This document shows, one piece after another, positions 7,757 to 59,074 of a stretch of DNA of 64,000 nucleotides (the stretch's first letter is position 1; every line of letters begins with the position of its first letter). The notes beneath the pieces are model-generated. The model searched no databases, was not told where the DNA came from, and was given only the letters and a program-made list of their open reading frames with translations. Made by a program: the position numbers and the translations under genes. Origin of the DNA: Inconstantimicrobium porci (lineage in GTDB: Bacteria > Bacillota > Clostridia > Clostridiales > Clostridiaceae); NCBI RefSeq assembly GCF_009696465.1, contig NZ_VULX01000009.1, positions 37,537 to 101,536 of the forward strand. The letters are read 5' to 3'.

Positions 7757-7780
7757 AAGGCATCTTTTATTTATATTGAT

Positions 7781-10530: not shown

Positions 10531-10538
10531 AATAAAAA

Positions 10539-10574: not shown

Positions 10575-10589
10575 CTTAATTATTTCTAA

Positions 10590-11903: not shown

Positions 11904-11924
11904 GTTTTCCTCCTAAGTAAAAAA

Positions 11925-12002
11925 GGTTTGCAAGACATATTCCGAAGCCTCCGTCGTTCCCTGCGGTCTCTCCAAGTCGTTTCTTCATATGTCTTGCAAA
12001 CC
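11925..12002. repeat. Family-2 stem/core repeat, copy A (16-bp perfect stem around the TCCGAAGCCTCCGTCG...CTCCAAGTCG core). On the minus strand it reads as a terminator-like hairpin plus U6, 20 nt before the permease RBS
   Basis: ggtttgcaagacatat ... atatgtcttgcaaacc. Homologous copies are at 13789, 25868 and 51380. Confidence 0.7.
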
Positions 12003-12055
12003 TCAGATTACTAAAGGATGAAATTGCCTTATACCATTTTTTGTATTAACTTGTA

Positions 12056-12104: not shown

Positions 12105-12220
12105 TTATATATTAACATAAATTCAATACTTTTTGTATTCTTATTTAGTATAACCGGCATTATAATGCATAATTCATAGCTCATAGTGCATAATTTATGC
12201 GTTATGCATTGAATAAAAAT

Positions 12221-13693: not shown

Positions 13694-13788
13694 AAAAACC
13701 GCCTACAATCCTTAATGTTGAGATAATGTATAATGTATAGAGTATAATGTATAATTTCGGATTAAACTCCCCGTGTGGGAGTTTATAA

Positions 13789-13858
13789 AAAAGGATGAAA
13801 GACATATTTCGAATCCTCCGTCGACACGCTCCAAGTCCTTTCTTTATATGTCTTTCAC
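13789..13858. repeat. Family-2 stem/core repeat, copy B (stem ggatgaaagacatat/atatgtctttcacccc). On the minus strand it is terminator-like plus U6, followed by the H1 hairpin (13760-13782) and then the transporter start
   Basis: The core TTCGAATCCTCCGTCGACACGCTCCAAGTC is nearly identical to copies C and D. Confidence 0.7.
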
Positions 13859-13915
13859 CCCTTGATGACTAAAGGACAAAATTGCATTCTTCCATCCTCT
13901 TACACAAGCGTGCAA

Positions 13916-13970: not shown

Positions 13971-14239
13971 TCCTAGACATTAAAAAGAGAGCTTTGCCCT
14001 CTTTAAATCTCCTAATTTAATAATTGTGGTGGGTTGAAGGTATTGCCTCCATTAAAATTAAGAAATTAGTTAGCTCAGCGCAGCTAATTTTATCATGAAT
14101 TATACAATATAAATTCTACATTACTTATGAGTTTATTTTGTATTAAAAACAGGTATTTTATTAATTATATTACCTTGATAAATAATTATAATTTATGATA
14201 CATTCTTAGTAGCAAATTTTATATTAAGGAGAATAATCT

Positions 14240-22980: not shown

Positions 22981-23400
22981 GACTATTACCCCTTTTATAT
23001 TTATTTTCCACATTTTTAATTTTATCACAACAAAAATAAAAGGTTAAACATTTACATTGTCTTGTTTTAATATATTTTATCTGAAACTAATCTTAATATT
23101 AAATTAATTATATATAATATATATTCCTAACTTCCTCAGCAAACTGTAAGTTGAAACAGCTCATAATGCATAGAGCATAACGCATAGTTGAGGATGAAAT
23201 TAGCTACGCTAATTTTGTAAACATAATGAAGACAAATCCTCCAAGCCTCCTAATGTTATAACTTAAAGTGTTTTAAAGTCTAATTGTAGTTTCTTGTCGA
23301 ACGAATTGCATTGACTATAATTTGGTAATAAAGTATATTGATAGTGTACTACTTGTAGTAATACACTTAATACGTGTGATACTAAACGGAATCTCAGGAG

Positions 23401-25862: not shown

Positions 25863-25867
25863 ACTTT

Positions 25868-25924
25868 CAAGACCTACTTCGAATCCTCCGTCGGCACGCT
25901 CCAAGTCGGCTCTGCATAGGTCTT
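25868..25924. repeat. Family-2 stem/core repeat, copy C (caagacctac / taggtctt stem), followed by the CTAAAGGATAAAAGTGCATT module and + strand terminator hairpins at 25950-25969 and 25986-26015
   Basis: Core TTCGAATCCTCCGTCGGCACGCTCCAAGTCGGCTCTGCA. Confidence 0.7.
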
Positions 25925-26115
25925 AAAAGTTTTAATGCTAAAGGATAAAAGTGCATTAGCAAATGCACTTTTTAAAAATAGAAAGAGCTGATATAGATTT
26001 TTCACTATATCAGCTTTTTTCTTTTACAATTAATATTAATAAATTATGAAAGCAGAATGAAGATTGATGAATTCAGGAAACAATCAGTACGCGTTGCTTA
26101 CTGATTCTAATTTCT

Positions 26116-26216
26116 AATGGAGGTTTCACCTCCAAACCTCTGATATCTTAAATTTTAAAGAATTATAAGAGGAACTTGTCCTCTTATTCTGAAACTCCCC
26201 CAAAGGAGTTTCATCC
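26116..26216. repeat. Family-1 composite hairpin repeat, full copy
   Basis: Modules AATGGAGGtttcaCCTCCAAACC, AAGAGGaacttgtCCTCTT and GAAACTCCcccaaaGGAGTTTCATCC. Confidence 0.7.
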
Positions 26217-26272
26217 ATCATTCTTCATTCTGCACTCTTCATCCTTAACCACTATATAAACATTAATTTTAA

Positions 26273-35812: not shown

Positions 35813-35898
35813 AACAGAACCTCCTATTATAATTCTTTCATTAAAGCTAAACCTACAGTACAATACTGCTATAAACAATAGTTAAGAGATCAGAGAAA

Positions 35899-36014
35899 AG
35901 GATGAAACTCCTTTTCTGAAGTTTCAAAATAAGGGTACTAATTCTCCTTATAACTCTTTAAATTAAAATTGCTGAAAGCAACTTCATAAGAGGCTTGGAG
36001 GATTTATCCTCCAT
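35899..36014. repeat. Family-1 composite hairpin repeat, inverted orientation
   Basis: GGATGAAACTCCttttCTGAAGTTTC ... GAGGCTTGGAGGatttatCCTCCATT. Confidence 0.65.
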
Positions 36015-36332
36015 TAAAACTTAGAAATTTATAGGCGTAGCCAATAAATTTCATCCTGCTCTCTTATCTCTACTCTCTTATCTCTTAGCTTTTCAATACT
36101 ATACTTGCCCTACAGGATTCTTTTTGTCTTCAACATTAACTTAATTCACAAAAAACAATCTTGTAACTGTCATAAATATTATTATACCACTGTATTATGA
36201 ATAATTTTAAAAAAATGTAATTATAAACTATTTATTTTACAGAATTCTCCCTAATTTGTTTTATTCCCTACTTTAATGTAGAATATTAAAGATATATACT
36301 ACTTTTACTAAAGATGAAAGGAGAAAAAACAT

Positions 36333-38572: not shown

Positions 38573-39568
38573 TTAACTTATAACATCTACTTCTGTTTCA
38601 TCTGGCTCTTCAAATATGCTGCTTACCTTTTTCTTAAGGTTCTCATCAACATAATAATCATTTGAACGTCCTTTTTCTACCGCATCATTTCTATTTTCTA
38701 TATGTTTATTCCACGTTTCATCATCAACTTTTATGTAATGAAGTTCAGTTTCTATCCCCTGATTATTAAAGAATTCTTTTGCTGTTTTTCTTTCAACTTT
38801 TGTCCATAAGCCTGAATCTATTATTACGTTTGTCCCTGCCTTAGCAACTTCTAATGATTTATTATAAATATATTTCTTTACCTTGCAGACAACTTCTTCA
38901 TGTTTATCACCAAGCTGTTTATCAAACATATCTGTCATGATTTCATCACATGACATTATTACAGCATTGCGATTAACTTTGAGTTTTGCAGAATAAGTAC
39001 TCTTACCGCTGCATATCTTTCCACAAATAAGAATAACTTTTGCCTTGTCATTCTTCTGAAATGCTGGTATATCATCACCATCATACTGCGTATATTTAAT
39101 TCCTGCCATATCAAACATTCTCTTTGATCCCTTTACAGAATCAGTTTCTGCATACTTGTCGCTTAAATAAATTACTTCCTTTATACCGCTCTGAATAATT
39201 GCTTTTGCACATTCATTGCAAGGAAAAAGTGTTACATATATCTTAGTTCCTTTTAGTGAGCCACTGTCATTATTTAGTATTGCATTAAGCTCTGCATGGC
39301 ATACATACATATATTTTGTATCAAGGGGCTCTCCTTCTCTGTTCCATGGCATTTCTTCATCGTCGCACCCACAAGGCATACCATTGTAACCAACTGAAAG
39401 AATCTTGTTTTCATTATTAACAATACAAGCGCCAACCTGAGTACTGCTGTCCTTACTTCTCTGGGCAGACAGAAGCGCCACTCCCATAAAATATTCATCC
39501 CAGTTTAAGTAATTACTTCTCTTCACAAAAACACCTCTCATTAAAAATTTTATCATTAGTTTAACCAA
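38573..39568 (-). CDS. Fusion protein: N-terminal dCMP/cytidylate deaminase (CDA zinc-binding fold) plus a C-terminal P-loop kinase-like domain
   Basis: Deaminase motifs VCHAELNAI and [11 protein letters not shown]; [16 protein letters not shown] start typical of ComEB-like dCMP deaminases. The C-terminus has Walker [14 protein letters not shown] and VIIDSGLW. The true start is probably the GTG at about 39526 (RBS GAGAGGTG). Confidence 0.75.
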
Positions 39569-39614
39569 ACTTTAAAGTTACTCTTTATATTAAAACGTAT
39601 ATAAATGATTTAGA

Positions 39615-39815
39615 ATTTAAAATTTAGAATGTAGAATTCAGGTTAAAATTCATTAGCTTCGCCATGAATTTAATTTAATGGAGGATTCTCCTCCAAACCA
39701 CCTGCGAAATTACTGAACGTAATTCCAACTAGAGGCTTGTCCGCCCTATATTTATTTCAAAAACTCACTCAAGGGAGTTTTTCCCTTAATTTTAGATTTT
39801 AAAATCTAAATTTTA
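39615..39815. repeat. MITE-like element: a family-1 composite repeat flanked by 15-bp inverted repeats (AATTTAAAATTTAGA)
   Basis: Left end ...gaatttaaaatttagaat. Right end tagattttaaaatctaaattttaaatta; the reverse complement matches the left end. Internal AATGGAGGattctCCTCCAAACC and AAAACTCActcaagGGAGTTTT modules. Confidence 0.5.
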
Positions 39816-40009
39816 AATTATTTCCTCAATATCTAGTTTATCTTCTTAAACATGTCTCTATTTTATATAGTTATTCTGTTTCTTGTCAAAACTGATTTAT
39901 GTAAATTTAATATTTTTATGTATTTTATTCTAAAATTTGTTATATTATTTATATAATGGTTATTATTTGTCTAACCTCAATAATTAAAAAAGTTAAGGAG
40001 TTGTTAATC

Positions 40010-42235
40010 ATGTCTACAATCAAAGATTTTATTCCTACAATTATTTACGTAATTCTTGGTATAATTGCTGCTTATCTAATTATTTTCAAGCTACTTGGAC
40101 TAAGAGTTATTGGTACTAATGAAGTAGGCGTAGTAGAAAAATGGTGGTCTCCAAAGGGCAACTTAAAATCAGGAAAATTTATTGCACTTAATGGTGAAGC
40201 AGGTTTTCAGCCTGATGTTTTAAGGACAGGCATTCATTTTAAATCATGCTTGGTTTATAAAATAGCAAAATGCCCTCTTGTTACTATTCCTCAAGGTCAG
40301 ATAGGCTATGTATTTGCCAGAGATGGTGAACCTCTTGCTGAAACTCAGACTCTAGGAAAAATTGTAGAGTGTTCAAACTTCCAGGACGCACGAGCCTTCC
40401 TTAAAAACGGTGGTCAGAAAGGTCCTCAAAGAGCAATATTAAGAGAGGGTACTTACGCATTTAACCTTAGTGCGTTTATTGTTCTTACTGAAGAAAATGA
40501 CTACTATTTAAGTATAGGTAATAAGCAAGAAGCTCTTCAGATAAAGAAAATGTCTGACGATCTTAAAGCTAAAAATGGATTTAGACCAGTTATAATTCGT
40601 GAAGGATTAAAGAATATCAAAGATCCAATGGCTATAATTACAGTACATGATGGTCCATCTCTTCCTAGTGGCGAAATAATTGCTCCAGTAGTAGGTGATG
40701 ACCCAACAAATAAAGCAACATATCATAACAATTTCCAAGATCCAGAAGCATTCTTAAGAGCTGGTGGATACCGTGGAAAACAGTATCAGGTAATAAGTGA
40801 TGGTACATTTTTTATTAACAGACTTTTTGCTACTATAGATATAATTCCTAAGACTATTATTCCTGTAGGTTTTGCTGGTGTTGTAAATTCCTTTGTAGGG
40901 AAAAAAGGTGTTGATGTCAGCGGCGCATCTTATACTCATGGTGAACTTGTAGAAGAAGGCTGTAAAGGTATATGGGTTAATCCTCTTATGCCTGGTAAAT
41001 ATGCTTACAATCTTTCTGCAGGAGTTCTTACTCAGGTTCCTACTACAAATTTTATTCTAAAATGGGTTGAATCAGAATCAGGCGGACATAATTTTGATGC
41101 AAATCTTAAAGAAGTAACTTTAATAACTAAAGATGCCTTTGAACCAACTCTTCCACTTTCAGTTGTTGTTCATATAGATTATACCAAGGCACCACTTGTT
41201 ATCCAAAGATTTGGTGACATTAAAAAGCTTGTTGACCAAACTCTTGACCCAATGGTTTCTTCATACTTTAAAAATATAGCTCAGAAAATGACTCTAATTG
41301 AACTTATTCAGAATCGTTCTGAAATTCAAAAGCAGGCAACAGAAGAAATGAAAGAAAAATTTGAGAATTACAATCTTGAACTTGAAGAAGTTCTTATTGG
41401 TACTCCTTCTCCTAATGGTGATAAGAAGATTGAAGAAATATTAAATCAGTTAAGCAATAGACAACTTGCTAAAGAAAAAATTGCTACTTATAATAGTCAA
41501 ATGCTTGCTAGCGAAAAGGAGAAAGAACTTAAGGACTTCCAGGCTAAAGCTGAACAGCAATTTGACCTTACTAAATCTGAAACAAATATCAAAATTCAAG
41601 ACAACATTGGTAAGGCGGAACTACAAAAAGCCAAACAAGATGCAGACAAGCAGAGAGCACTTGCTGATGCTGAAGCATATAAAGTCAAGAAACTTGCAGA
41701 AGCTCAGGCTGAAATGAAAGCAAGACTTGGTATAGCAGAAGCCATAGCAACAAAAGAGCAAGTTAACGCTTATGGGGGACCACAATACCAGGTTCTACAG
41801 AATGTTATGAGCAAATTTACTGATGCCATCAAAGAAGGAGCAATAAATATCGTTCCTAAAAATGTTGTTACAATGGGTGGTTCAGAAGACAATAAGAACA
41901 TCAATGCTTTTGATGGACTTCTTGGTATACTTTTATCTGAAAAAATCGGTATAGATTTTAAATCTGATGAAGGTGAAAGCGACTTTGCTAAGAAAATGAA
42001 AGAAGATATTTATAGAAAGATGGCTGAAGAAGATAAAAAGGAGTCTGAAGAAACTTTAGATATTAAGGCTCCAGAAATAAATGCAGAAAATAATCCACAA
42101 AAAGAGGTTGAAAATATAAATAAAAATGTGGATAACAAAAAAGCAGCAGAAAATAAAACTCACACAGAACCTACACCAGCTAAAAATCCACTACCAAGAT
42201 ACAAGGAATATAACATCTCTGATAAGCTTAAATAA
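40010..42235 (+). CDS. Flotillin-like SPFH/band-7 protein with a long C-terminal coiled-coil, Lys/Glu-rich region
   Basis: N-terminal TM helix, an SPFH domain, then about 300 aa of charged, low-complexity, heptad-like sequence. The start was moved to MSTIKDF, 9 nt after AAGGAG. Confidence 0.7.
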   Translation: MSTIKDFIPTIIYVILGIIAAYLIIFKLLGLRVIGTNEVGVVEKWWSPKGNLKSGKFIALNGEAGFQPDVLRTGIHFKSCLVYKIAKCPLVTIPQGQIGYVFARDGEPLAETQTLGKIVECSNFQDARAFLKNGGQKGPQRAILREGTYAFNLSAFIVLTEENDYYLSIGNKQEALQIKKMSDDLKAKNGFRPVIIREGLKNIKDPMAIITVHDGPSLPSGEIIAPVVGDDPTNKATYHNNFQDPEAFLRAGGYRGKQYQVISDGTFFINRLFATIDIIPKTIIPVGFAGVVNSFVGKKGVDVSGASYTHGELVEEGCKGIWVNPLMPGKYAYNLSAGVLTQVPTTNFILKWVESESGGHNFDANLKEVTLITKDAFEPTLPLSVVVHIDYTKAPLVIQRFGDIKKLVDQTLDPMVSSYFKNIAQKMTLIELIQNRSEIQKQATEEMKEKFENYNLELEEVLIGTPSPNGDKKIEEILNQLSNRQLAKEKIATYNSQMLASEKEKELKDFQAKAEQQFDLTKSETNIKIQDNIGKAELQKAKQDADKQRALADAEAYKVKKLAEAQAEMKARLGIAEAIATKEQVNAYGGPQYQVLQNVMSKFTDAIKEGAINIVPKNVVTMGGSEDNKNINAFDGLLGILLSEKIGIDFKSDEGESDFAKKMKEDIYRKMAEEDKKESEETLDIKAPEINAENNPQKEVENINKNVDNKKAAENKTHTEPTPAKNPLPRYKEYNISDKLK

Positions 42236-42335
42236 AGAATAACTTGATTTAAAAATAATATCTATAGACTTATTTGTCACTTAGGTAAAAGGTAAGGAAA
42301 TAATTCTTGAGACAAGCACATGAATTCTAATCTTA

Positions 42336-42430
42336 AATGGAGGCATCGCCTCCAAACCACTATACTGTTTAACTTTAGAGGTTTGGAGGTAAAACCTCCA
42401 TTTTGAAACTCCAGTGGAGTTTCATCCTTA
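42336..42430. repeat. Family-1 composite hairpin repeat, full copy
   Basis: AATGGAGGcatcgCCTCCAAACC ... GGTTTGGAGGtaaaaCCTCCATTTT GAAACTCCagtGGAGTTTCATCC. Confidence 0.7.
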
Positions 42431-42521
42431 CTTTTTGCTTTTGATCTGTGACCTGTGACTTACAAAGTTCTCATTCATCGAGCTATTTATACTATAGTTT
42501 CTAAAACCACCTTAATTCAAC

Positions 42522-42737
42522 TTAGTTACTAACTATTGTGCTTGCTGCTTCTTGTTCTGCATAGAAATTAATCTTCCTCTCACTCAAAATCTTTATCATT
42601 TTTTTAAGTTGTTTAATATCATCATCATCAAAGTTATTGTTGAAATAATCCTTTACTATTTCTTTGATTACACTGTCCTCCATTTTGTATCTTAAAAGAT
42701 AATACTTCTCATATGCTCTTGAATACTCATCTACCAT
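42522..42737 (-). CDS. Hypothetical small protein (71 aa)
   Basis: ORF only. Acidic DDDD stretch. No family recognised. Confidence 0.3.
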   Translation of the reverse strand: MVDEYSRAYEKYYLLRYKMEDSVIKEIVKDYFNNNFDDDDIKQLKKMIKILSERKINFYAEQEAASTIVSN

Positions 42738-45503: not shown

Positions 45504-45651
45504 ATTTACTACGCCTTTCCTTACTAAATATTAACTTTATTGTATCATTTAATACTATAAACTGCCATATTCATAAATTCTTATATGTTTTTACTTATTA
45601 CGAAATAATGTTATAATTAATATACTAACATTTATGAAGGGGGCTTTACTT

Positions 45652-46497
45652 ATGAACGGAGATGAAAATTCAGGTTCTATTCAGATAATAAATTCAGATG
45701 AACACACTGTCCAGCATCTCTTTCAACATGAAATAGACACAGTTGAAAAGATCACTACTGAAAATAACGACAATTGTACAAATACTGCTATTAATGATGC
45801 TACTTCTGATAATAATTCGGACAATTCTTATTCTCAGAATTCAGTAATATTCTATTTCAAGAGATTATTTACTGTGGCTTTAAAAACTATAAAGACGCCA
45901 TATTTTATGCTGTCTGCATTCGTAAAAGCAGCTGACTATAAAGTAGCACTTGGTTTTATAATCATCCAGAGTTTCTTGTTTGCAGGGTCAATAGCTTCGA
46001 TATTTGACTCAGTTAATGATTTGCTTAGTAACGTCACACCACTTTTTAGCAGCTCTTTATACAGTTCTGCAACTTTTTCAATAATGAAGTCTTTCTTTGT
46101 GACTCTTATTTCTTCAATACTGCTGATGCTGATTTTTGCATCAATAATACACATTTTTGTAACACTGTTGATGAAGACTAAGGCAACATATAAACAGATG
46201 TTATGTATTGCAAGTTCAAAGTGTATAGCTCAGATACCTTTCACAGTTGTTGCATTCATAGTATCTATGTTCAGCCCTGTTACTGCACTATTTATTGCAG
46301 GACTTGGCACACTGCTTGGTTGCTTCTTTGTAACATCTGCTATAAAAGGACTTAATAATGCAAGTGACAACAAAGTGCCTTATGTAGCCTTCTTATCATT
46401 TGCAGTACTTGCAGTTATAACTTATGCTTTAATAAAGTTAATCTTGCCAGTATTTTTATCATCTTCTCTTTTATCTATAAAAAGAGGACTTTATTAA
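45652..46497 (+). CDS. Polytopic membrane protein (Yip1-domain-like)
   Basis: 5-6 TM helices after an N-terminal soluble region rich in N, D, S and T. The start was set at MNGDEN after GAAGGGGG. Confidence 0.4.
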   Translation: MNGDENSGSIQIINSDEHTVQHLFQHEIDTVEKITTENNDNCTNTAINDATSDNNSDNSYSQNSVIFYFKRLFTVALKTIKTPYFMLSAFVKAADYKVALGFIIIQSFLFAGSIASIFDSVNDLLSNVTPLFSSSLYSSATFSIMKSFFVTLISSILLMLIFASIIHIFVTLLMKTKATYKQMLCIASSKCIAQIPFTVVAFIVSMFSPVTALFIAGLGTLLGCFFVTSAIKGLNNASDNKVPYVAFLSFAVLAVITYALIKLILPVFLSSSLLSIKRGLY

Positions 46498-46518
46498 ACA
46501 ATTGCCATTAATCAATTA

Positions 46519-46568
46519 AGGATGAAACTCCTTTAGGAGTTTCAAGAAAAGAGGAGAATTCTCCTCTT
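46519..46568. repeat. Family-1 hairpin repeat, partial copy (GGATGAAACTCCtttaGGAGTTTC plus AAGAGGAGaattCTCCTCTT)
   Basis: Directly downstream of the membrane-protein gene. Confidence 0.6.
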
Positions 46569-46723
46569 TAAGACTCTTCTAATTTCATATTAGCAACATA
46601 TACAATATAAAATAAGCAGCCGAAAAATTCGGCTGCTTTTGTTTTTATAAACTAGTCAAAATGATGTTCCTGGCGTCATATATAAAAGTTTTTAAAAAAG
46701 TTTCATTAATTTTCATTGCTAGA

Positions 46724-47347: not shown

Positions 47348-47464
47348 CTTTTATTATCCAAAAAGGAGTTGTTAAGAGGGCAAGCCCTCTTATGGAAATT
47401 CTTCCTTTGCAGAATTCAATCCTTCATTTAGCATTCTACACTTGGCATTTTGCATTAACTTTAG

Positions 47465-49000
47465 CTACATAAGTGGTGCGAATACTCTTAAAAAACTTCT
47501 TATTATTCTTATATACCATTTAACATTTCTGCACTCTTCTAGTGTTACTTCATGACATACATCAAGTGTCTTTAAGAAATCTTCTTTAATTTCCATAACA
47601 GACTTCGTTTTATACAGCCATATTCCACATTCAAAATGAAAATAAAGACTTCTGAAGTCAAGATTTATAGTTCCTACTACTCCAAGTTCATCATCACACA
47701 CAAATGTTTTGGAATGAATAAATCCTGGTGTGTATTCATAAATCTTTACGCCTACACTGATAAGCTGTTCGTAATATGACCTTGTAAGAATATGTACATA
47801 CCATTTATCAGGTACACATGGTGTTACTATCCTCACATCTACTCCACTTTTTGCTGCAAGTTCAAGTGCAGTTGTTATTTCATTATCAACTATAAAATAT
47901 GGTGTATTTATATAAATATAATCCTTTGCTCTGTTTATCATATTAAGATATGTAAACTCACCAAGTCTCTCATTATCAAGCGGACTATCTCCATAAGGCT
48001 GAACATATCCATCTGACTCTATTTCTTCTACCTTAAACTTTTCTGGTCTATAGTTATCATAGTCCTCAATAAAATTGTTATAAAAATTCCATGTCTGCAG
48101 GAACATAACTGTAAGGCTCCATACTGCATCACCTTTAAGCATTATTGAAGCATCTTTCCAGTGTCCAAATCTTTCTACTCTATTTATATACTCATCCGCT
48201 AAATTGATTCCACCAGTAAATCCTGTATGTCCATCGATAACAAGTATCTTTCTGTGGTCTCTTGTGTTATGCCTTACTGTCACAACAGGTGTAACAGGAT
48301 TAAATACGACACACTTTATACCAAGCTCTCGTAACTTTTCATCATAATGATGTGGAAGTTTACATATGCATCCAAAGTCATCATAAATTACTCTTACATC
48401 AACACCTTCTCTTACCTTTTTTATAAGTATATCAAGAACAGAATCCCACATAAATCCTTCTTCAATGATAAAATATTCAATGAATATGTAATGTTTTGCC
48501 TTCTTTAGCTCTTCTATTATCTTTTCAAACTTTACTTCTCCAGGTGACAAATACTGTGTAAAAGTATTTTTATATATAGGAAAAGCTGATGTCCTTGTTA
48601 TATATTCGGACTGCTTTGCAACATTCATGTCCATTTGTCTGATTTCTTCACGTATTGAATCATCCTGTTTTAAAAACTTAATAGTTTTATTATAAATATC
48701 TTCAGTCTTAATCCTAAACTCTTTACTTAAATTGCTTTTTCCAAATATCAAGAAAAGAATTACTCCGCCAACAGGAAGCCCTAATACAGCAATTACCCAT
48801 GCAAGTTTATACGATGTATTTTCATTTCTGCTTATTATCCAAAGCATTGAAAGTATACCTAAAACTAAAAATCCAGCATAAATATATGCAAATAAATAAC
48901 TAAGTCGTATAAATGCATAAATTAATCCAACTACCTGAAGTGTAATCAAAGAAGCCACAATGAAAATTCTGCTAAACATTACTTTAAAAGTATTTTTCAT
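47465..49000 (-). CDS. cls: Cardiolipin synthase (PLD superfamily, two HKD motifs)
   Basis: Two N-terminal TM segments, HRKILVIDGHTGFTGGINLADEY and HSKTFVCDDELGVVGTINLDFRS. Confidence 0.9.
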   Translation of the reverse strand: MKNTFKVMFSRIFIVASLITLQVVGLIYAFIRLSYLFAYIYAGFLVLGILSMLWIISRNENTSYKLAWVIAVLGLPVGGVILFLIFGKSNLSKEFRIKTEDIYNKTIKFLKQDDSIREEIRQMDMNVAKQSEYITRTSAFPIYKNTFTQYLSPGEVKFEKIIEELKKAKHYIFIEYFIIEEGFMWDSVLDILIKKVREGVDVRVIYDDFGCICKLPHHYDEKLRELGIKCVVFNPVTPVVTVRHNTRDHRKILVIDGHTGFTGGINLADEYINRVERFGHWKDASIMLKGDAVWSLTVMFLQTWNFYNNFIEDYDNYRPEKFKVEEIESDGYVQPYGDSPLDNERLGEFTYLNMINRAKDYIYINTPYFIVDNEITTALELAAKSGVDVRIVTPCVPDKWYVHILTRSYYEQLISVGVKIYEYTPGFIHSKTFVCDDELGVVGTINLDFRSLYFHFECGIWLYKTKSVMEIKEDFLKTLDVCHEVTLEECRNVKWYIRIIRSFLRVFAPLM

Positions 49001-49277: not shown

Positions 49278-51368
49278 ATGGATAAATTAAGTAATGTATT
49301 TGGTGAAAATGTATTTAATGATGCTGTTATGAGAGCAAGACTTCCTAAAGCTACTTATAAAGCATTGAAGAAAACTATTGAAGAAGGTAAGCCTTTAGAC
49401 CTTGATACTGCAAATGTTATTGCACACGAAATGAAGGAATGGGCTGTAGAAAAGGGAGCTACTCATTTCACTCACTGGTTTCAACCATTAACAGGTGTTA
49501 CAGCAGAAAAGCATGATGCATTTTTAAATCCAATGGATGATGGGACAGCAATTTTATCATTCTCTGGAAAAGAATTAATTCAAGGTGAACCCGACGCTTC
49601 TTCATTCCCATCTGGTGGACTTAGAGCTACTTTTGAAGCTAGAGGATATACAGCTTGGGATTGCACATCACCAGCTTTCGTAAAGGATGGTAGCCTTTGC
49701 ATACCAACAGCTTTCTGTTCATATAACGGTGAAGCTCTTGATTCTAAAACTCCGCTTCTTCGTTCAATGGAAGTTATATCTAAAGAGGCTATAAGAGTAC
49801 TAAGAGTTCTTGGAAACACTACTGCAAAAAAAGTTATTGCTAATGTTGGACCTGAACAAGAATACTTTATTGTAGATAAAAAATTATACGATCAACGTAA
49901 AGACCTTATTTTAACTGGAAGAACTCTATTTGGTTCTATGGCTCCAAAGGGACAGGAACTTGACGATCATTACTTTGGTGCTATAAAAAATAGAATATCA
50001 GATTACATGAAGGATCTTGACACTGAACTTTGGAAGCTTGGAATAAGTGCTAAAACTAAGCATAATGAAGTTGCTCCAGCTCAGCATGAACTTGCAACAA
50101 TATTCACTACTACTAATATAGCTACTGACCATAATCAGCTTGTTATGGAAACTATGAAAAAAGTTGCATTAAAACATGGACTTGTTTGTCTTCTTCATGA
50201 GAAGCCATTTGCAGGAATCAATGGTTCTGGAAAGCATAATAACTGGTCAATCAATACTGATGATGGTGAAAACTTATTAAATCCTGGAAAAACACCACAG
50301 AACAACAAACAGTTCTTATTATTCTTAAGCGCAATAATATCTGCTGTTGATGATTATGCAGATTTATTAAGATTTTCAGCAGCAAATCCAGGAAACGATC
50401 ATAGACTTGGTGCTAACGAAGCTCCTCCAGCAATAGTATCAATATTCTTAGGTGATCAATTATCTGAAGTTGTAAGACAAATAGTTGAAGATACTGATGG
50501 AAATTATTTATCAAGCAGCAAGCTTAAGATTGGAGTTTCAACACTACCTGATCTTCCAAAGGATGCAACTGATAGAAATAGAACATCTCCATTTGCATTC
50601 ACTGGAAATAAATTCGAATTCAGAATGGCTCCTTCTTCAGGATCAATTGCTGGACCAAATACTATATTAAATACAACTGTTGCAGATGTTCTTAGCAAAT
50701 ATGCAGACAGACTTGAAGCAGCATCTGACGTTGATGCAGAAGTTGATGCAATAATAAAAGAATCTCTAAAAGCACACCATAAAGTTTTATTTGATGGCAA
50801 CGGCTATTCTGATGAATGGGTTGAAGAAGCAGCTAAGAGAGGCCTACCAAATATTAAGAGTACTGTTGAAGCAATCAGGTCACTTGTTGCTCCAAAGAAT
50901 ATAGAAGTTATGTCAAAGCATGGCGTTTTAACAGATGTAGAAATGCATTCTCGTTATGAAGTTCATCTTGAAAATTACATCAAGACTATAAACATTGAAG
51001 CATTAACTGCACTTGAAATGGCTAAGAGAGATATTATTCCAGCAGTTATTAAGTACTCTACTTCTTTAGCGGAATCAATTAATGCTATAAAGAGCACTGG
51101 ATTCGATGCTGATGTTACTGCTCAAGGTGAAACTCTTACTGAAATCTCTAAGCTTACAGCTTCAGCAATGAAAAAAGTCAAAGCTCTTGAATCTGCTATA
51201 TCAACAGCTTGTTCAAAAGAAGACTCTTACGATCAAGCTTACAGCTATAGATACGATGTATTCGAAGCTTTAAATTCATTAAGAGAAGATGTTGACAAGC
51301 TTGAAACTTTAGTAGACAGCAAATACTGGCCAATGCCAACTTATACAGAACTACTATTCCACGTTTAA
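49278..51368 (+). CDS. glnN: Glutamine synthetase type III
   Basis: 696 aa. The N-terminus MDKLSNVFGENVF...RLPKATYKAL matches the GSIII family. The size is typical of GlnN. Confidence 0.8.
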   Translation: MDKLSNVFGENVFNDAVMRARLPKATYKALKKTIEEGKPLDLDTANVIAHEMKEWAVEKGATHFTHWFQPLTGVTAEKHDAFLNPMDDGTAILSFSGKELIQGEPDASSFPSGGLRATFEARGYTAWDCTSPAFVKDGSLCIPTAFCSYNGEALDSKTPLLRSMEVISKEAIRVLRVLGNTTAKKVIANVGPEQEYFIVDKKLYDQRKDLILTGRTLFGSMAPKGQELDDHYFGAIKNRISDYMKDLDTELWKLGISAKTKHNEVAPAQHELATIFTTTNIATDHNQLVMETMKKVALKHGLVCLLHEKPFAGINGSGKHNNWSINTDDGENLLNPGKTPQNNKQFLLFLSAIISAVDDYADLLRFSAANPGNDHRLGANEAPPAIVSIFLGDQLSEVVRQIVEDTDGNYLSSSKLKIGVSTLPDLPKDATDRNRTSPFAFTGNKFEFRMAPSSGSIAGPNTILNTTVADVLSKYADRLEAASDVDAEVDAIIKESLKAHHKVLFDGNGYSDEWVEEAAKRGLPNIKSTVEAIRSLVAPKNIEVMSKHGVLTDVEMHSRYEVHLENYIKTINIEALTALEMAKRDIIPAVIKYSTSLAESINAIKSTGFDADVTAQGETLTEISKLTASAMKKVKALESAISTACSKEDSYDQAYSYRYDVFEALNSLREDVDKLETLVDSKYWPMPTYTELLFHV

Positions 51369-51379
51369 GCAATAAGGTG

Positions 51380-51450
51380 AAAATTTTAAGAGCTATTTCG
51401 ACTCCTCCGTCGGCGAGTTCCAAGTCGGCTCTGCATAGCTCTTAAAATTT
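51380..51450. repeat. Family-2 stem/core repeat, copy D (stem aaaattttaagagctat / atagctcttaaaattt)
   Basis: Core TTCGACTCCTCCGTCGGCGAGTTCCAAGTCGGCTCTGCA, 12 nt after the glnN stop. Confidence 0.7.
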
Positions 51451-51641
51451 AAAATTAATTAAAGAGTAAAAGAGCATATTTCCATCACATGTATTATTAG
51501 TACACTTTAACCCACTATACCTGTTGAAATACATTTTTTGATGCACTTTCTACATAAAATATAACCATATATATATTTCACTTATATTAATAATATAGTT
51601 TTTTTCTTTTCTATTCGTTGTTCTCTGTTATCTATTCACTA

Positions 51642-52943: not shown

Positions 52944-52992
52944 AAGAGTAACTTGTTCTCTTACTTAGAAACTCCGTGAAGGAGTTTCATCC
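52944..52992. repeat. Family-1 hairpin repeat, partial copy (AAGAGtaacttgttCTCTT plus GAAACTCCgtgaaGGAGTTTCATCC)
   Basis: Same two modules as at 26168-26216. Confidence 0.6.
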
Positions 52993-53030
52993 TTTTCTCT
53001 GCTCTCTTCGTTTTAATCCCTAATCTATAA

Positions 53031-54008
53031 TTATTTTAGTACTACTGTTGCCACTATATAAAGTGCCACAATTATTGCCATCCATGGATTAATAAACAAC
53101 TTCCATGTATTTTCCTTTATGTTTTCTTGTGACTGTATTGTATTTTCTTCTATATCCACTTTTGCAAAAACTGGCTTTGATACATTTATATATTGTTTAT
53201 CTGTATAATACTTCATAGCCTTTAGAACAAGTACTATCAACGCTGTAGCAGCTATTGCTATTACTCCAATTATAGATATAGCATCAAGCCTCTGTGCAAT
53301 TGTTATTTTTGCAGCTTCTTTAACAGCCTCCTTATGAAGTGCTTCATTACCAGGTGCAAATACTAAAAATTTAGCTAGAGCAACCTGAATACCATTAATA
53401 GTCATATGACATACCATAGTAACAAATATTGAACCAGTTATCCTGACCATTATTGCAAAAAGAAACCCTAGTGCAAATGCATACAAAAACTGTGATAAAT
53501 TAAAGTGGAAAATTGCAAACAAAAGTCCGTTTACAGTTGCTGCAACAAACATATTTTTATCTTTAAAACCATGAAGTACAACTCCACGCATAGTAATTTC
53601 TTCTGTTATTGCTGGTGTGATAGCCATAGCAAAAAACATAGCAAAAAAGCTTAAAGGTGTAACCTGTTCCATAAATGCTCCTACAGTATCTGTTACAAAT
53701 AACTGTGATATATTTGCTAAAAAACTCATTATAGGCTGTGCCAACATTCCAATAAGTACAGCGAACATAATATTTATTAAAGGTGTCTTCTTAAAGCTTA
53801 ATGTTTCTTTAAATGATTGTGAATTTAATAGAATAAAAATCACTGCACACGGTACGAATGTTAAGAAATGCACAGCAGAATTAGCAAGACCAATGTTCAT
53901 TTTATAGTGATTATATAAATATGTAAAAATCATTGGTGATATAAACATCTGTACTAAGCTGACAACAATAAAATACAGATATACTTTAGTAGTTTCTTTA
54001 ATTTTCAT
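53031..54008 (-). CDS. CPBP-family intramembrane metalloprotease (CAAX protease / Abi-type)
   Basis: Motifs EEITMRG (EExxxR), FAIFHFN (FxxxH) and HMTINGI, in a polytopic membrane protein. Confidence 0.8.
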   Translation of the reverse strand: MKIKETTKVYLYFIVVSLVQMFISPMIFTYLYNHYKMNIGLANSAVHFLTFVPCAVIFILLNSQSFKETLSFKKTPLINIMFAVLIGMLAQPIMSFLANISQLFVTDTVGAFMEQVTPLSFFAMFFAMAITPAITEEITMRGVVLHGFKDKNMFVAATVNGLLFAIFHFNLSQFLYAFALGFLFAIMVRITGSIFVTMVCHMTINGIQVALAKFLVFAPGNEALHKEAVKEAAKITIAQRLDAISIIGVIAIAATALIVLVLKAMKYYTDKQYINVSKPVFAKVDIEENTIQSQENIKENTWKLFINPWMAIIVALYIVATVVLK

Positions 54009-54246
54009 AATATTTAACTCCTATATATTTTTCATATTTTTTGCATAATTTTATTTCTACTGTTAATAATACTAATGTAACTATTTATTTAATATGCCTC
54101 TCCCCCATTTTTATATAACTTTTATTAATCCTCTTATAGATAATATTCTATAAGAGGATTTTATCTTTTTGAGTTGCATATTAAATATACTCTTTTATTT
54201 TACTATATTATGAAGCTAAATACACTTTTATTTATACTAATCCTAT

Positions 54247-56256
54247 TTATTCTGTCTTAAATTTATTGACCATCCCTAATAAATGCTGTGACTTATCTTT
54301 ATTCTTTTCTAAATATTCAACAATATCATCCTTTTTACAATTAATACTTGTCATATTTTCTGCAATATGTAATGATGATTTAGATACAGAAGATATTGCT
54401 TCTGTTAACTCTTCAATATTTGAAGAAACATTATTTATAGAATCATATATTTCTTTAGATACTCCTGACACCTCTGTCATTACATTTTTAAAGTTATCAC
54501 CACTTTTTTTATAAGAAGATGTAATATCAATAAGCTTTTCATAATCATTTAAGATATCTTTTTCTACTACATTAAGTAATTCTGATGATGTTTCTGAAAG
54601 TTCTTTAACCGCTAATAATGTTTCGTTAACATTATCCTGTATAGCATTGACAGTTGATGCAGACTGCTCAGCAAGCTTTCTTACTTCCTCAGCAACTACT
54701 GCAAATCCTTTACCCTGTTCACCTGCTCTTGCGGCTTCTATAGATGCATTAAGAGACAATAAATTTGTTTGCTGAGATATCTCAAGGATACTATTAGACA
54801 TAGATGATATATTCTCAACAACCGCAATCTTTTCAAGTGCTCTTTTTAATTTAATGCTACAACTATTATATAAACTTTCAACATTCTGTTTAGATAATAT
54901 AGCATCATTATATGCTACATCCGATTCTTGTTGTATGTCGCCAGCTAACTTAAGAACCTTAACTGCAGTATCTGCTGACTTTTCTGCACTCTTATTTATT
55001 GTATGTGAAATTGAATTTGCCTCTTCTAAAGATGCAGTGCATTGCTCCATATTAGCTGAAATTTCTTCTGTTTCTGCTGCTGAACTCTCTAATTCGCTAG
55101 AAATATCAATAATCATTTCGTTTATTTTTTCACTACTTTTAGAAATTTCATTACTGTTCATCTTAACCTGATTGATAGCTGAACATAACTCATTTACTCC
55201 TGAGTTTAAATCTTGAATTGTTTCTGCAAACTCATTATCACCTATTTTTTCCCCCTTATATGCAAGGTTATATGAAGATAATTCTGTTGAGTAATTTCGT
55301 ATATTCTTAATTTCTCTTAATAGTATTCTTCCTATTACTACTGATGTAAGTGCACCTATAACTACAAATATCACAGTTGTAATAAACTGATCTAACGCTA
55401 TTCGATTAATACCACTCATTACTTCTTTATTAGGTGCAATAAGACATATTGACCATGATGTACCTGCTATCCTTGTATGTGAAATTCGTACTTTTGAACC
55501 ATTTAACACTACATCTTCAACTTCTGTCTTATCAGAAATAAGTTTTGATAAAATGTTATTCACTTCATTTTCTTTATCTTTATTTTTCCCCGCAAAGTTA
55601 TCAACAAATTTAGTTTCAGTTAAAACTAAATTCATATCCTTATGCGCCACAAATCTTCCAGTACTATCAAGAATAAATCCATATCCTGACTGTCCTATTT
55701 TTATAGACTGAACAATTTTATTTACTTCATCAAGTTTAATTGTTCCACAAAGATATCCAACCACCTTGTCATCCCTATTAATTGGTGTAACAATTGTTGT
55801 TATAGATTCCTTTTCTATCTGCTTTATAAATGGGTCAGTAACAAACTCTCCCTCTGCCTTCATCTTCTTAAAGAAATCTTCCTGCGACTGGTCTTTAGGT
55901 TCTTCATTTCCTATGTAATATCCAAATCCATCCGCAGACATGATAAAGAGTCCATTGAATCCCCACTTTTCATTTTCATCAATAAGTACCTGCTTTTGTG
56001 CATTCCAATCCATTGACTTTATTTCATCTATTTTAGCTATATATCTAAGTTGTTCTTTCCTTTTTTCAAAGTATGCATCTACTACAGTTGCCATATCTTT
56101 TGTTCTTTCAGTCAGTTCTTCAAATGTGATACCAAGAATATTAGCTTTTGACCTACTATAAGATATAAATGACAATATGTTACACATAATAAAAACTAAT
56201 AAGGTTATTTGAATAATAATTCTTCTTGCAATTCCAATCTTTAGCTTTTGTTTCAT
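54247..56256 (-). CDS. Methyl-accepting chemotaxis protein with a Cache-type sensor (paralog A)
   Basis: TM, Cache-like extracytoplasmic domain, TM, then an MCP signalling domain. About 65% identical overall to the MCP at 60386..62395, with 100% identical stretches. Confidence 0.85.
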
Positions 56257-56408: not shown

Positions 56409-58319
56409 TCATACACGCACTATTTTTTTGAACATTCTCGAAGAAAATACTGCACTTATAAAAAATACTACTACTGAAACAATTACACTTATTACAAATG
56501 TTTTTGTCAAATCTATACTTATAATATTTCCTAAAGCACCAATAGCAAAATAACTATGAACAAGTCCGACCATTACAGGAATTAAATAAAACATTGTAAC
56601 TTCTTTATTTATTGATCTGCCAATTTCTTTCGTAGAAGTTCCTATGTTTTTAAGTACCTTATACTTAATCTTATCTTCATTTGCATCACCGTAAATCTTA
56701 ATATAAATAATACTTGCTTCTGCAAGTATGAAAACTAAAAACAAGAATGCCATCATTGCATAAATAACTTTGAGCCATGCTATCCTATCAGTTTTATATA
56801 TGCCACACGTAATTGCTACCTGTTTTACATTCACAAACTTTGACATACCAGTCACTAATTTATCCATAACCTTTTTATCAAGAAGCTTACTGTCATTTTC
56901 GATTTTAATTCCCAGGAAATTATTTTTTTCACCATACTTCTCAATCTTTTTATAATTCTCATTACTTACAATAAGAGTCTGATTATTAAATGCACATCCT
57001 ATTACAGGAAGCTTCATATCATCTTTTCCCTTTTGAAATATGTTATCACCTATAACTATAGTACTTTTATTTACCAAACTTCCAAGAGTCATAGGTCTGG
57101 GTATATAAACCACATTATTGCCAGAAATCATATCACTAGTAACCTTACTTATGCTGTCTTGATGATTATTTCTTCGCAAAATATCTGCAAACTGATCATA
57201 AGAAAGCACTATAAAATCTTCCTTTTCAGTTCTGAAACTATTCTTTTCAGTCACGTTAACTTTAAGTACTGAGTCATTCACAGAATATTTTACTTTTCCA
57301 ATACCGCTAAATAACTCCTTAATCTTTTCCTGGTTTTTAATCTCTTCATTTGAAGTAAAGGTTAAAGAATATAATTCATTGTTTTCTGCCTGTTTTTCAT
57401 AAAGAGTCTTCATTGAAACTGCTGCACCAAGTACAGTAATAGTACATGCTGTGAATATTGCTATTGTTGCGTATGTGGTGAAGTTCTTCCTCATCCTATA
57501 AAACAGATTGTTTATTGTTATTATATTTTCACCTTTATAAAGAATTGATTTTCTATTTATAAGGAAATTAAATATTACAGACAGTACTGTTCCAAACAAG
57601 CCATAAGTACCAATACATACAATTATAAGCGTCCTTAAAGCTTTTGTTTTATCATTACTTATCATATAATAACCGTATATTACAAAAAATAACGAAACTG
57701 CTGCAATTAAGTATGTGTAGAACCTTACCTTTACAGGCTCATCTCCTTTTTTATTATCTTTTAAAAGATCTATTACACTACTTCTAAGTATATTTATAAA
57801 TCCCTTAAGAGCCATAATAATAAATATTATTAGAAATGTTGCTACAGTATACATAATTGAATCTGCTGTTATATTAAATTTTATATCTATATTGAAATCT
57901 GCCATTTTAAACACTATCATTTGAAAGAATTTTGAAAACAAAACTCCAATTCCTGTTCCAATAGCACATGAACTTAATCCTATCAACATCATTTCTGTAA
58001 AATATATTCTTCCTACAGTAAATGAATCAAGTCCCATAAATGTGTAAATACCTATTTCTTTCTTTCTGTTTTTAAGGAATATATTTGATGAATACCATAT
58101 GAAGAAAAGCATAAATAAAGTCAGCATAATAATCAATATCTGTAAAGTCATCTTTGAATATTCTTTATTCATTTTACCTAAATAATCAAGAGTGTTACCT
58201 TTCAAAAGTATCATAAAGTTACTCAGTATAACTACTGAAAATATCATTGATATAAAGAACATAGTATATATCTTTATATTATTTTTAAAATTGTTATAGG
58301 CTATTCTCAACACACTCAT
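56409..58319 (-). CDS. FtsX-domain ABC transporter permease, BceB-type (10 TM with a large extracellular loop)
   Basis: The start was set at MSVLRIAYNNFKNN (the ATG overlaps the upstream ATPase stop). About 636 aa. Confidence 0.75.
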   Translation of the reverse strand: MSVLRIAYNNFKNNIKIYTMFFISMIFSVVILSNFMILLKGNTLDYLGKMNKEYSKMTLQILIIMLTLFMLFFIWYSSNIFLKNRKKEIGIYTFMGLDSFTVGRIYFTEMMLIGLSSCAIGTGIGVLFSKFFQMIVFKMADFNIDIKFNITADSIMYTVATFLIIFIIMALKGFINILRSSVIDLLKDNKKGDEPVKVRFYTYLIAAVSLFFVIYGYYMISNDKTKALRTLIIVCIGTYGLFGTVLSVIFNFLINRKSILYKGENIITINNLFYRMRKNFTTYATIAIFTACTITVLGAAVSMKTLYEKQAENNELYSLTFTSNEEIKNQEKIKELFSGIGKVKYSVNDSVLKVNVTEKNSFRTEKEDFIVLSYDQFADILRRNNHQDSISKVTSDMISGNNVVYIPRPMTLGSLVNKSTIVIGDNIFQKGKDDMKLPVIGCAFNNQTLIVSNENYKKIEKYGEKNNFLGIKIENDSKLLDKKVMDKLVTGMSKFVNVKQVAITCGIYKTDRIAWLKVIYAMMAFLFLVFILAEASIIYIKIYGDANEDKIKYKVLKNIGTSTKEIGRSINKEVTMFYLIPVMVGLVHSYFAIGALGNIISIDLTKTFVISVIVSVVVFFISAVFSSRMFKKIVRV

Positions 58320-59074
58320 TATCTGGCACCTCCCATTGATGCCAAAAGATCTAATATCCTGCTGTAGAACTCTTTTCTGCTGTTTCCTTTCTCTATATGA
58401 CATTTTATCTCACCATCTGTAAGCATATATACCTTATCACTATAGCTTGCACTAATAGCATCATGTGTAACCATAATTATTGTTGCATTTTCTTCCTTAT
58501 TAGCTCTTGTCATACATTCAAGAAGATCTGATGATGACCTTGTATCCAGTGCTCCAGTTGGTTCATCTGCAAAAATAACCTTTGGTTTTGTAATAAGTGC
58601 TCTTGCTGCTGAACCTCTCTGCTGCTGTCCTCCTGAAAGTTCATACGGATACTTTTTAAGATGATCTGAGAGTCCAAATAACTCAGCCATCTGCTTTACC
58701 TTATCTTCGATATCCTTTGTCTTTTTTCTTCCAAGGGCCAAAGGAAGAGCTATATTATCCATCAGCTTCATATTATCAAGCAGGTTGTAATCCTGAAAAA
58801 TAAATCCTATGTTATCCCTTCTTATTTTTGAAAGTTCCTTATTTTTTACCTTCGTTATATCAACACCATCTAAAAGGATTGTACCTTTAGTTGGTTTATC
58901 AAGAGTTGATACAAGATTCAAAAGAGTACTTTTTCCCGCTCCTGAAGGTCCCATTATGGAAATAAACTCTCCTTCATTTACAGTTAATGATACATCTCTT
59001 AAAACTTTATTTTTAAAACCTTTTATGCCATATTCCTTGCATACACCATCTAATTTCAATATTTCTTTCATCAT
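58319..59074 (-). CDS. ABC transporter ATP-binding protein, BceA-type
   Basis: GPSGAGKST, LSGGQQQRGSAARAL, IFADEPTGALD. Start at MKEILKL after GGAGG. Confidence 0.85.
   Translation of the reverse strand: MMKEILKLDGVCKEYGIKGFKNKVLRDVSLTVNEGEFISIMGPSGAGKSTLLNLVSTLDKPTKGTILLDGVDITKVKNKELSKIRRDNIGFIFQDYNLLDNMKLMDNIALPLALGRKKTKDIEDKVKQMAELFGLSDHLKKYPYELSGGQQQRGSAARALITKPKVIFADEPTGALDTRSSSDLLECMTRANKEENATIIMVTHDAISASYSDKVYMLTDGEIKCHIEKGNSRKEFYSRILDLLASMGGAR

Follow-up and report, generated by a model that had tools for sequence, protein, structure and literature searches.

Short non-coding repeats that fold into hairpins are represented in bacteria by repetitive extragenic palindromes (REP) and their mosaics (BIMEs), by the BOX elements of Streptococcus pneumoniae and by miniature inverted-repeat transposable elements (MITEs) such as Correia/NEMIS, RUP, ERIC and bcr1. 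REP sequences, known from Enterobacteria and Pseudomonas, are imperfect palindromes of 20-40 nt that lie outside genes and carry a conserved 5' GTAG tetranucleotide; their stems are conserved and their loops vary freely, and they cluster in high copy number as mosaics in 3' untranslated regions (UTRs) and between cistrons, where they are co-transcribed and do not terminate transcription. BOX elements are intergenic and non-coding, with boxA-boxB(n)-boxC modules in fixed order, variable inner modules and pairing ends, and their end modules are conserved in sequence between copies. MITEs are small, non-autonomous and hairpin-forming, are present in some genomes and absent from others, and lie near genes in either orientation. 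Here we describe a repeat family that resembles all three, found in a 64,000-nt stretch of Inconstantimicrobium porci DNA (contig NZ_VULX01000009.1, positions 37,537 to 101,536; hereafter, the window). I. porci is a pig-gut member of the Clostridiaceae (PMC7738495), and the window has a G+C content of 28-35% and a gene content that looks clostridial. The reading that we favour, with a probability of roughly 0.6, is that the elements are a new family of non-coding, non-autonomous nested-palindrome repeats, REP/BIME-, BOX- or MITE-like, that are transcribed with their neighbouring genes.

The elements depart from each of these models. The 5' GTAG of REP is found in no copy; the palindromes here are 17-28 nt long and flanked by GGAT...ATCC, the hairpins follow one order inside a long stem rather than alternating as inverted pairs, and the host is a Firmicute. 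In contrast to BOX, the closing arms are copy-specific arrays of heptads, and no sequence relation to BOX was found, although no direct comparison with the BOX consensus was made. In contrast to MITEs, which are defined by target-site duplications and by conserved terminal inverted repeats that match a parent IS, the outermost repeats vary and just the inner GGATGAAA/TTTCATCC pair is conserved, with no parent insertion sequence (IS) in any locus. Tandem 7-nt intergenic repeats are known from cyanobacteria as STRR, heptanucleotide repeats of unknown function that form simple direct arrays of fixed units; the heptads of the present family are degenerate and form two inverted arrays around a conserved hairpin core. 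STRR have been used for fingerprinting (PMC5088731). In parS of plasmid pSM19035, 7-10 contiguous WATCACW heptads, direct and inverted, are bound by omega/ParB (PMC9499535); one arm class of our elements, TATCACT/AGTGATA, fits this unit, but most arm classes do not, and the elements are chromosomal, interspersed, enclose hairpins and have no ParA/omega partner that we could see. Similar to integron attC sites, the elements are imperfect long palindromes whose structure is kept while the sequence varies, and CCTTAAC/GTTAAGG comes near RYYYAAC/GTTRRRY; however, the outer position of the core site does not match, neither a cassette array nor an integrase is present, and the neighbours are housekeeping genes.

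Searches for a described relative were likewise negative. Rfam gave no match in the whole window at the gathering threshold and, for the copy called D below, only sub-threshold noise at E<=10 (miRNA, snoRNA and sRNA models); at four loci from other species that carry a simpler form of the element, it matched just an unrelated SAM riboswitch outside the element. Neither plasmids nor phages gave a BLAST match to copy D, and we found no description of the family in the literature on Clostridium MITEs, on hairpin or heptamer repeats, on the carrier species or on Inconstantimicrobium. This agrees with an earlier note made from the letters of the window, which had reported a dense family of hairpin repeats and recognized none of the named ones in it.

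Three hairpin modules, M1, M2 and M3, mark the family. M1, AATGGAGG-N5-CCTCCAAACC, has four exact copies in the window and one with two mismatches, and M3, GAAACTCC-N3-5-GGAGTTTC, has three exact copies with a loop of 3-5 nt; shuffled windows gave an expectation of 0.00 for each. A fourth M3, at 26190, has a 6-nt loop, and further copies, one reversed and two degenerate, lie at 35903, 13763 and 39759. M2 is weaker as a pattern (two matches at no more than one mismatch, against 0.06 expected), with perfect M2-type stems of 8-9 bp at 26165, 46548 and 47373. The motif GGATGAAA is present nine times in the window and is intergenic each time. A profile hidden Markov model (HMM) trained on the four full copies only and run over the window recovered the partial copies E, F, G, H and J, matched copy I weakly and found nothing further (table). 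Because a model of the full copies recovers the partial ones, the copies are related beyond chance. Altogether, the window contains four full and five or six partial copies, about ten in 64 kb, all of them intergenic; G and H are two halves of a single element parted by a copy of a different repeat.

These results bear out the earlier note on the existence of the family: by shuffles and HMM, all ten of the sites that it listed are members, two of them (23235-23255 and 47360-47393) as degenerate remnants. Its statement that the hairpins occupy almost every long intergenic region went too far, as copies are found in 9 of the 23 intergenic regions of at least 200 nt and the first ~12 kb is empty. 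Its picture of three independent modules also has to be replaced. The hairpins are the inner parts of larger elements that make up one interspersed non-coding family. The full element is a nested palindrome of 195-255 nt (four copies in the window) composed, from end to end, of an arm, a hairpin that we call H1, M1, an optional extra hairpin, M2, M3 with ATCC, and a second arm; this order is the same in all four full copies, A, B, C and D, which align colinearly with a column identity of 66%. The modules are thus sub-hairpins closed by a long outer stem, and on either side the element reaches ~60-100 nt past the coordinates first assigned to it. Modules had been said to occur in various combinations and in both orientations. 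Both orientations do occur, with the whole unit flipped, but the combinations reduce to a single order from which modules have been dropped: E and F are M2-M3, I is H1-M2, and J is H1 with half of M1.

Copies of the repeat element in the window (E, expectation value against the HMM of the four full copies)
Feature	Position	Strand	HMM match	Description
Copy D, full	42267..42469	+		contains the hairpins first noticed at 42336-42430; arms, H1, M1, inverted M1, M3-ATCC
Copy D, outer-stem arms	~42267-42298 and 42428-42469			outermost enclosing pair 42267/42469
Copy D, M1 hairpin	42336..42358	+		AATGGAGG CATCG CCTCCAAACC; exact pattern match, 7-bp stem
Copy D, second M1, inverted	42380..42402	-		in the place taken by M2 in other copies
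Copy D, M3 hairpin	42404..42428	+		TGAAACTCC AGT GGAGTTTCA + TCC; module common to other Clostridium species
Copy A, full	26046..26242	+	E=1e-50	right arm of TTCATTC heptads, 26210-26246
Copy A, modules				M1 26116-26138, AT hairpin, M2 26165-26187, M3 26190-26213 + ATCC
Copy B, full	35855..36108	-		core 35899-36057 bounded by GGATGAAA...TTTCATCC; arms of GAGATAA/TCTCTTA heptads
Copy C, full	39603..39823	+		M2 and M3 degenerate; arms of ATTTAGA/AATTTTA heptads, 39608-39638 and 39788-39819
Copy E, short	46498..46600	-	46514-46563, E=3e-6	arm, M2 46548-46569, M3 46523-46544 + ATCC, arm
Copy F, short	52944..53028	+	52951-53028, E=3e-7	M2-like 52944-52963, M3 52968-52988 + ATCC, pyrimidine-rich arm
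Copy G, right-hand part of split element	13716..13790	-	13728-13793, E=0.004	M3 variant TAAACTCCC..GGGAGTTTA; ATAATGT heptads 13723-13755
Copy H, left-hand part of split element	13985..14130	-	14003-14121, E=7e-11	arm, H1
Copy H, modules				degenerate M1 14031-14053, M2-like 13985-14003
Copy J, decayed	23158..23275	+	23167-23275, E=3e-8	CATAATG heptad arm, GGATGAAA, H1, half M1, degenerate right arm
Copy I, decayed	47360..47460	-	47407-47443, E=3.7 (weak)	arm, H1-like hairpin, M2 47373-47392, M3 remnant

Copies A, B, C and D each fold as one multi-branch structure closed by an outer stem of 22-42 bp. For copy D, RNAfold gave a minimum free energy of -69.3 kcal/mol (z = -6.8 against 200 dinucleotide shuffles), and in this fold the inverted M1 pairs with the first M1. 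The arms that form the outer stem are degenerate tandem heptamers, which differ among the window copies and are complementary within each. In the full window copies, the duplex between cognate arms has an energy of -27 to -37 kcal/mol (z = -4 to -5.6 relative to shuffles), whereas non-cognate arms pair poorly, at -9 to -26 kcal/mol; for copy D, the values are -27.0 kcal/mol for its own arms and -9 to -19 for others. Tandem Repeats Finder reported period-7 arrays at 26210-26246, 36060-36087, 39608-39638, 39788-39819, 13723-13755 and 12162-12195. Self-match at a lag of 7 was 0.62 for the window arms and 0.67 for 30 arms from other species, compared with ~0.30-0.33 at other lags and in controls, and at a lag of 14 it was 0.54 and 0.63. 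Read inward, the arms contain 3.76 stop triplets per 28 nt, against 2.3 read outward and 2.0 in the background; all three frames are closed within 28 nt in just 10 of 29 arms. Arm diversity takes a different form outside I. porci. Each of the four full window copies has its own arms, but the idea that every copy does had to be rejected for other species, whose arms belong to a small number of heptad classes; within a class, arms from different copies pair as well as the two arms of one copy, so that diversity there lies at the level of sub-families.

Conserved stems with variable loops had been taken in the earlier note as a sign that the hairpins are under selection. The pattern argues only weakly for selection, because common descent of recent copies would give the same picture and because the M3 set from other species was picked by requiring exact stems. 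Better evidence for structural constraint comes from the complementarity of arms within each copy, together with pair changes on both sides of the stem in a few H1 and M3 variants. In copy G, the closing pair of M3 is altered on both sides (TAAACTCCC/GGGAGTTTA), and two H1 variants from other species, AAATTTAGC/GCTAAATTT and GTAATTTC/GAAATTAC, likewise have both sides of a pair changed. RNAalifold, run on a MAFFT alignment of 20 of the simpler elements of other species, yielded no covariation statistic and recovered only the invariant M3, because H1 was misaligned.

The family is shared with other clostridia. A scan for M3 followed by ATCC, with one genome kept per species, gave 37 loci, of which 29 come from gut-associated Clostridium sensu stricto and share both M3 and the architecture. 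The carriers include C. disporicum, C. saudiense, Clostridium sp. CAG:221, C. cuniculi, C. polynesiense, C. gallinarum, C. lamae, C. amylolyticum and metagenome-assembled genomes (MAGs). Their element is a simple one of 90-150 nt, which reads heptad arm, (T)TAAGG, H1, an AT-rich palindromic spacer (AAAATATATTTT), M3 as the last hairpin, ATCC, TTAAC and arm. H1 is commonly AAATTCAGC..GCTGAATTT or GAAATTCC..GGAATTTC, which differ from M3 by a single base. None of the other-species elements has M1 or M2, which are thus I. porci additions between H1 and M3. M1 is therefore not central to the family, and the suggestion that its GGAGG/CCTCC content mimics Shine-Dalgarno and anti-Shine-Dalgarno sequences gained no support. 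A metagenome scan with the M1 pattern returned 120 loci, all of them chance or coding matches (for example, a conserved phage-like open reading frame (ORF)) and none with M3 or a low-GC repeat context; in viral contigs, M3 had no matches and M1 had 11, assumed to be chance. Relatives without the family, in which the HMM found no match, are C. celatum and three loci with 75-81% identical flotillin homologues (one Sarcina MAG and two metagenome contigs).

A GGATGAAACTCC-loop-GGAGTTTCATCC palindrome was seen in unrelated taxa as well, in a Spirochaetia MAG (L035, ~2200-2340) and in a Syntrophomonadaceae MAG (L013, 6233-6261). In the former, it lies within a cluster of GGAGTTT/AAACTCC hairpins, upstream of a sequence that, judged by eye, is like a tRNA 5' end. 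These palindromes may be due to chance or belong to an independent hairpin family.

The clearest view of gain and loss comes from an aromatic amino acid operon. C. disporicum, C. celatum and an uncultured Clostridium share the syntenic gene order aroC-pheA-aroE-aroK-aroF-tyrA, with DAHP synthases that are 86-87% identical. In C. celatum, the five spacers measure 46, 12, 11, 86 and 83 nt and have no element. In C. disporicum, four of the five contain one, with spacer lengths of 208, 191, 119 and 148 nt as called (the aroK>aroF spacer is in fact ~24 nt longer, because the ORF start used for aroF is upstream of the real one), and the fifth gene pair overlaps. The uncultured Clostridium has elements in three of the spacers. 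Spacers filled in C. disporicum and empty in C. celatum indicate that copies are gained or lost between related species, and the presence of elements inside an operon implies that they do not block its transcription. The aroF>tyrA element has opposite orientations in the two carriers. At aroK>aroF, the right boundary (AAACTAA, then ATGAAGTATGGAGG), the orientation and H1 are identical in both, and the arms differ in heptad class (AGTTAGT/ACTAACT in one, AAGTGAC/GTCACTT in the other). The arms of the aro elements start at or overlap the upstream stop codon, and the end of pheA itself reads as arm-type heptads, GTTAGTAGTTAG in C. disporicum and GTTAGTTGTTAG in the uncultured Clostridium; pheA of C. 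celatum, with no element there, ends differently. In a separate observation, the aroC>pheA spacer of L181/L184 (2153-2227) holds a different small palindrome, AATCCAAATATTGG...CCTCCGGGGAG...CAAATATTGGGATT, where C. disporicum has the heptad-arm element; it seems that hairpin inserts of several kinds accumulate in the intercistronic spacers of these clostridia.

The earlier note had proposed comparing strains for the presence or absence of copies and mapping copies to gene ends. Presence/absence differences were found between species, at the aro spacers, but not among I. porci strain contigs, which differ only by two microhomology deletions next to copy D. Both are strain-specific and lie just downstream of the copy (42441-42676, against contigs L039 and L044). 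One is flanked by the 11-bp repeat CCTCCATTTTG and takes away M3 and the right arm, and the other is at CCTTAC; both truncate a 71-amino-acid minus-strand ORF (42522-42737) whose start, AAAATGGAGGAC, resembles M1. Between contig L044 and positions 38728-42441 of the window, coding DNA is only 83-93% identical, whereas the two intergenic regions, with copies C and D in them, match at 99-100% (copy C, 99%), which could reflect a chimeric scaffold, recombination or constraint. In metagenome scaffolds L039 and L043, N-gaps or contig ends fall exactly at M2 of copies E (46571) and I (47360/47361), and a DJ-1 gene between these two copies is missing in L039 and L042. At 54127-54160, a perfect 14-bp hairpin, AATCCTCTTATAGA..TCTATAAGAGGATT, contains the two M2 arm sequences in swapped order, and this 'inside-out' M2 may be a further variant of the family.

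Mapping to gene ends placed copies in 3' UTRs, in 5' UTRs and between cistrons. Copy A sits in the 3' UTR of a minus-strand ECF-S gene, between stop codon and terminator; copy D lies downstream of the flotillin gene; copy E begins right behind the stop codon of gene 45634-46497, and the arm of copy F ends at the stop codon of gene 53031-54008. Copies B and C are in divergent regions, 3' of promoter-like sites that would place them in 5' UTRs: B lies directly upstream of a minus-strand dehydratase gene, and C, in a divergent promoter region, is probably in the 5' UTR of a deaminase gene. In other species, the M3 end faces the 3' end of a gene in 21 of the 26 copies that have a neighbour within 300 nt (a hand count that includes two orthologous pairs), an orientation bias relative to transcription.

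Several specific functions were considered for the hairpins and set aside. A mini-ORF from the ATG of AATGGAGG (MEVxPPNL-like) was rejected, as there is no Shine-Dalgarno sequence upstream and changes in loop length shift the frame. A hammerhead or other small ribozyme at the three-way junction was rejected on direct reading, the core motifs being absent. A CodY box or HutP-type UAG-N4 site has a partial resemblance in some copies only.

If the elements are a mobile repeat family, as we think most probable, they would multiply by insertion into intergenic and intercistronic spacers through an enzyme encoded elsewhere. The conserved GGATGAAAYTCC hairpins, M3 and its one-base variant H1, would be the most likely recognition sites, since these hairpins are conserved across species while loops and arms vary, which points to a trans-acting protein that recognizes them. 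Transcribed within neighbouring mRNAs, the elements would form very stable multi-branch folds in UTRs and between cistrons. Because transcription does not end at them, they would be tolerated in these places, and they may change mRNA stability or processing. Complementarity of the arms might be kept by selection on the hairpin, as RNA or DNA, or by hairpin-templated correction during replication; such quasipalindrome correction is a template-switch mechanism known from E. coli.

Several observations weigh against a mobile family. No transposase, RAYT or other mobilizing gene was found, and a crude regular-expression search for HUH/Y1 signatures in the window and in ~400 kb of loci was negative. 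No exact insertion boundary or target-site duplication can be defined, the filled and empty aro spacers being too diverged, and no copy is polymorphic for presence or absence among the strain contigs L038-L044. Ordinary MITEs have conserved terminal inverted repeats, but the outer arms here vary from copy to copy. Density is uneven, with no copy at positions 1-11900 of the window or in the 7 kb past its left end; in all the additional I. porci DNA (7 kb to the left and ~1 kb to the right), there are no copies and the spacers are short. Finally, folding energy shows no significant strand asymmetry over the whole set (14 of 34 copies, p=0.25).

Among the alternatives, the one that dispenses with a family altogether has next to no probability: that the hairpins are GGAGG-rich intrinsic terminators alike by chance. 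Three M3 copies do pass a loose terminator scan, through the T-rich downstream arm, and several copies follow gene ends. However, shuffles expect no such patterns, and alignment, the check that the earlier note had suggested for this case, and the HMM showed that flanks, outer stems and the order of modules are common to the copies. The hairpins lack a proper U-tract (M1 and M2 have none), copies lie upstream of genes and inside operons, and genuine terminators adjoin the elements (for example, 25947-25972 and 25986-26015). The elements are thus not intrinsic terminators. It is very improbable, if somewhat less so, that the heptad arms are DNA arrays for a protein of the ribbon-helix-helix type, serving as chromosomal organizing or regulatory sites. 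This would explain the strict 7-bp periodicity, and arms of the AAGTGAY/RTCACTT class can be read as WATCACW, the heptad of omega/ParB, in inverted arrays; but the likeness is limited to that class, no partner gene was seen, and the conserved parts of the element are the inner hairpins rather than the arms. Heptads also vary within one genome (AAGTGAC, AGTTAAT, GAATGAA, GAGATAA and TTTAGAA), so that no single sequence-specific protein fits. A narrower account of mobilization, which we consider improbable as it stands, makes the elements REP-like RAYT sites or IS200/IS605-derived ends, with GGATGAAAYTCC recognized as a single-stranded DNA hairpin by a Y1 (HUH) transposase. The conserved stem with a free loop and a fixed flanking tetranucleotide (GGAT/ATCC), the placing of H1 and M3, one-base variants of each other, at either end of the core, and the high extragenic copy number are what such sites would look like. 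Set against this are the lack of an HUH/Y1 signature in the fetched loci and the window by that crude test, the lack of a GTAG motif and the long symmetric arms, which are foreign to such ends; moreover, RAYTs are known mainly from Proteobacteria.

A more serious rival, though still an unlikely one, is that the elements are useful cis-acting RNA modules, with the outer stem acting as an RNase III-type processing site or as a stabilizer against exonucleases, and with stop-rich arms ending stray translation, so that 3' UTRs and intercistronic spacers are punctuated; this would be compatible with a mobile origin. Consistent with such a role, the aro-operon copies take up nearly all of the spacer, beginning at the stop codon and stopping just short of the Shine-Dalgarno sequence, the orientation bias is relative to the upstream gene (21/26), and arms stay complementary within copies despite differing between them, to the point that both arms of an orthologous copy have switched heptad class together. 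The inward excess of stop triplets (3.76 per 28 nt) points the same way, as does a tendency of the transcribed strand to fold more stably, in 12 of 18 tandem-gene contexts by a mean of ~4 kcal/mol (hand tally). This last tendency is suggestive at most, because strand composition bias could, through its effect on G-U pairing, give the same result. By contrast, both orientations occur, even at one spacer in two species, C. celatum has the same operon without any copy, module content is variable and many copies are decayed, and three-frame closure within 28 nt is seen in just 10 of 29 arms. The two views can be combined into a self-spreading device of 'operon punctuation', to which we give only a small chance. 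Its arms would stop ribosomes in any frame and from either side, since 7 cannot be divided by 3 and there is about one inward stop per heptad; the arm duplex would be a processing site or a ribbon-helix-helix-type array, and GGATGAAAYTCC would recruit a mobilizing or binding protein common to gut Clostridiaceae. If this were true, the joint change of arm class would amount to hairpin-templated rewriting, which has not been described for REP, BOX or MITEs.

The window also contains a second, unrelated repeat family with four copies in the same orientation, at 11915-12035, 13785-13890, 25863-25950 and 51380-51470, the second of which (13790-13890) is the repeat lying between copies G and H. It forms a long hairpin whose outer stem covaries (GACATAT/ATATGTC, GACCTAT/ATAGGTC and GAGCTAT/ATAGCTC) around a conserved internal GACTTGGAGcG...CGACGGAGGaTTCGAA, with a conserved CTAAAGGAYRAAA box nearby. 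In copies 1 and 2 (minus strand), a U-run stands directly before the Shine-Dalgarno sequence and ATG of amino-acid permease and AI-2E transporter genes. This repeat, which has no Rfam match at E<=1 and does not occur in the other Clostridium loci, could represent a leader, an attenuator or a further MITE. Elsewhere in the window are genes for cardiolipin synthase (47465-49000) and type III glutamine synthetase (49278-51368), both identical to I. porci RefSeq proteins, and three methyl-accepting chemotaxis genes (54247-56256, 56409-58403 and 60386-62395), the first and third of which are paralogous, with a ~670-nt stretch of ~81% identical DNA.

Returning to the first family, its arms are puzzling: they differ between copies, are complementary within a copy and have a 7-nt period, a combination that ordinary transposition does not explain. 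The elements lengthen intercistronic spacers by ~100-200 nt, place very stable structures in UTRs and can supply or overlap stop codons, as at pheA, and so offer a natural experiment in which the tolerance of operons to large hairpin insertions can be studied. In practice, the repeats coincide with breaks in metagenome scaffolds and could serve as strain-typing markers, and annotation pipelines will wrongly call them 'structured RNA' or 'terminator'. Should the census hold for the whole genome, the family would have a major part in shaping the non-coding DNA of I. porci and of several gut Clostridium species.

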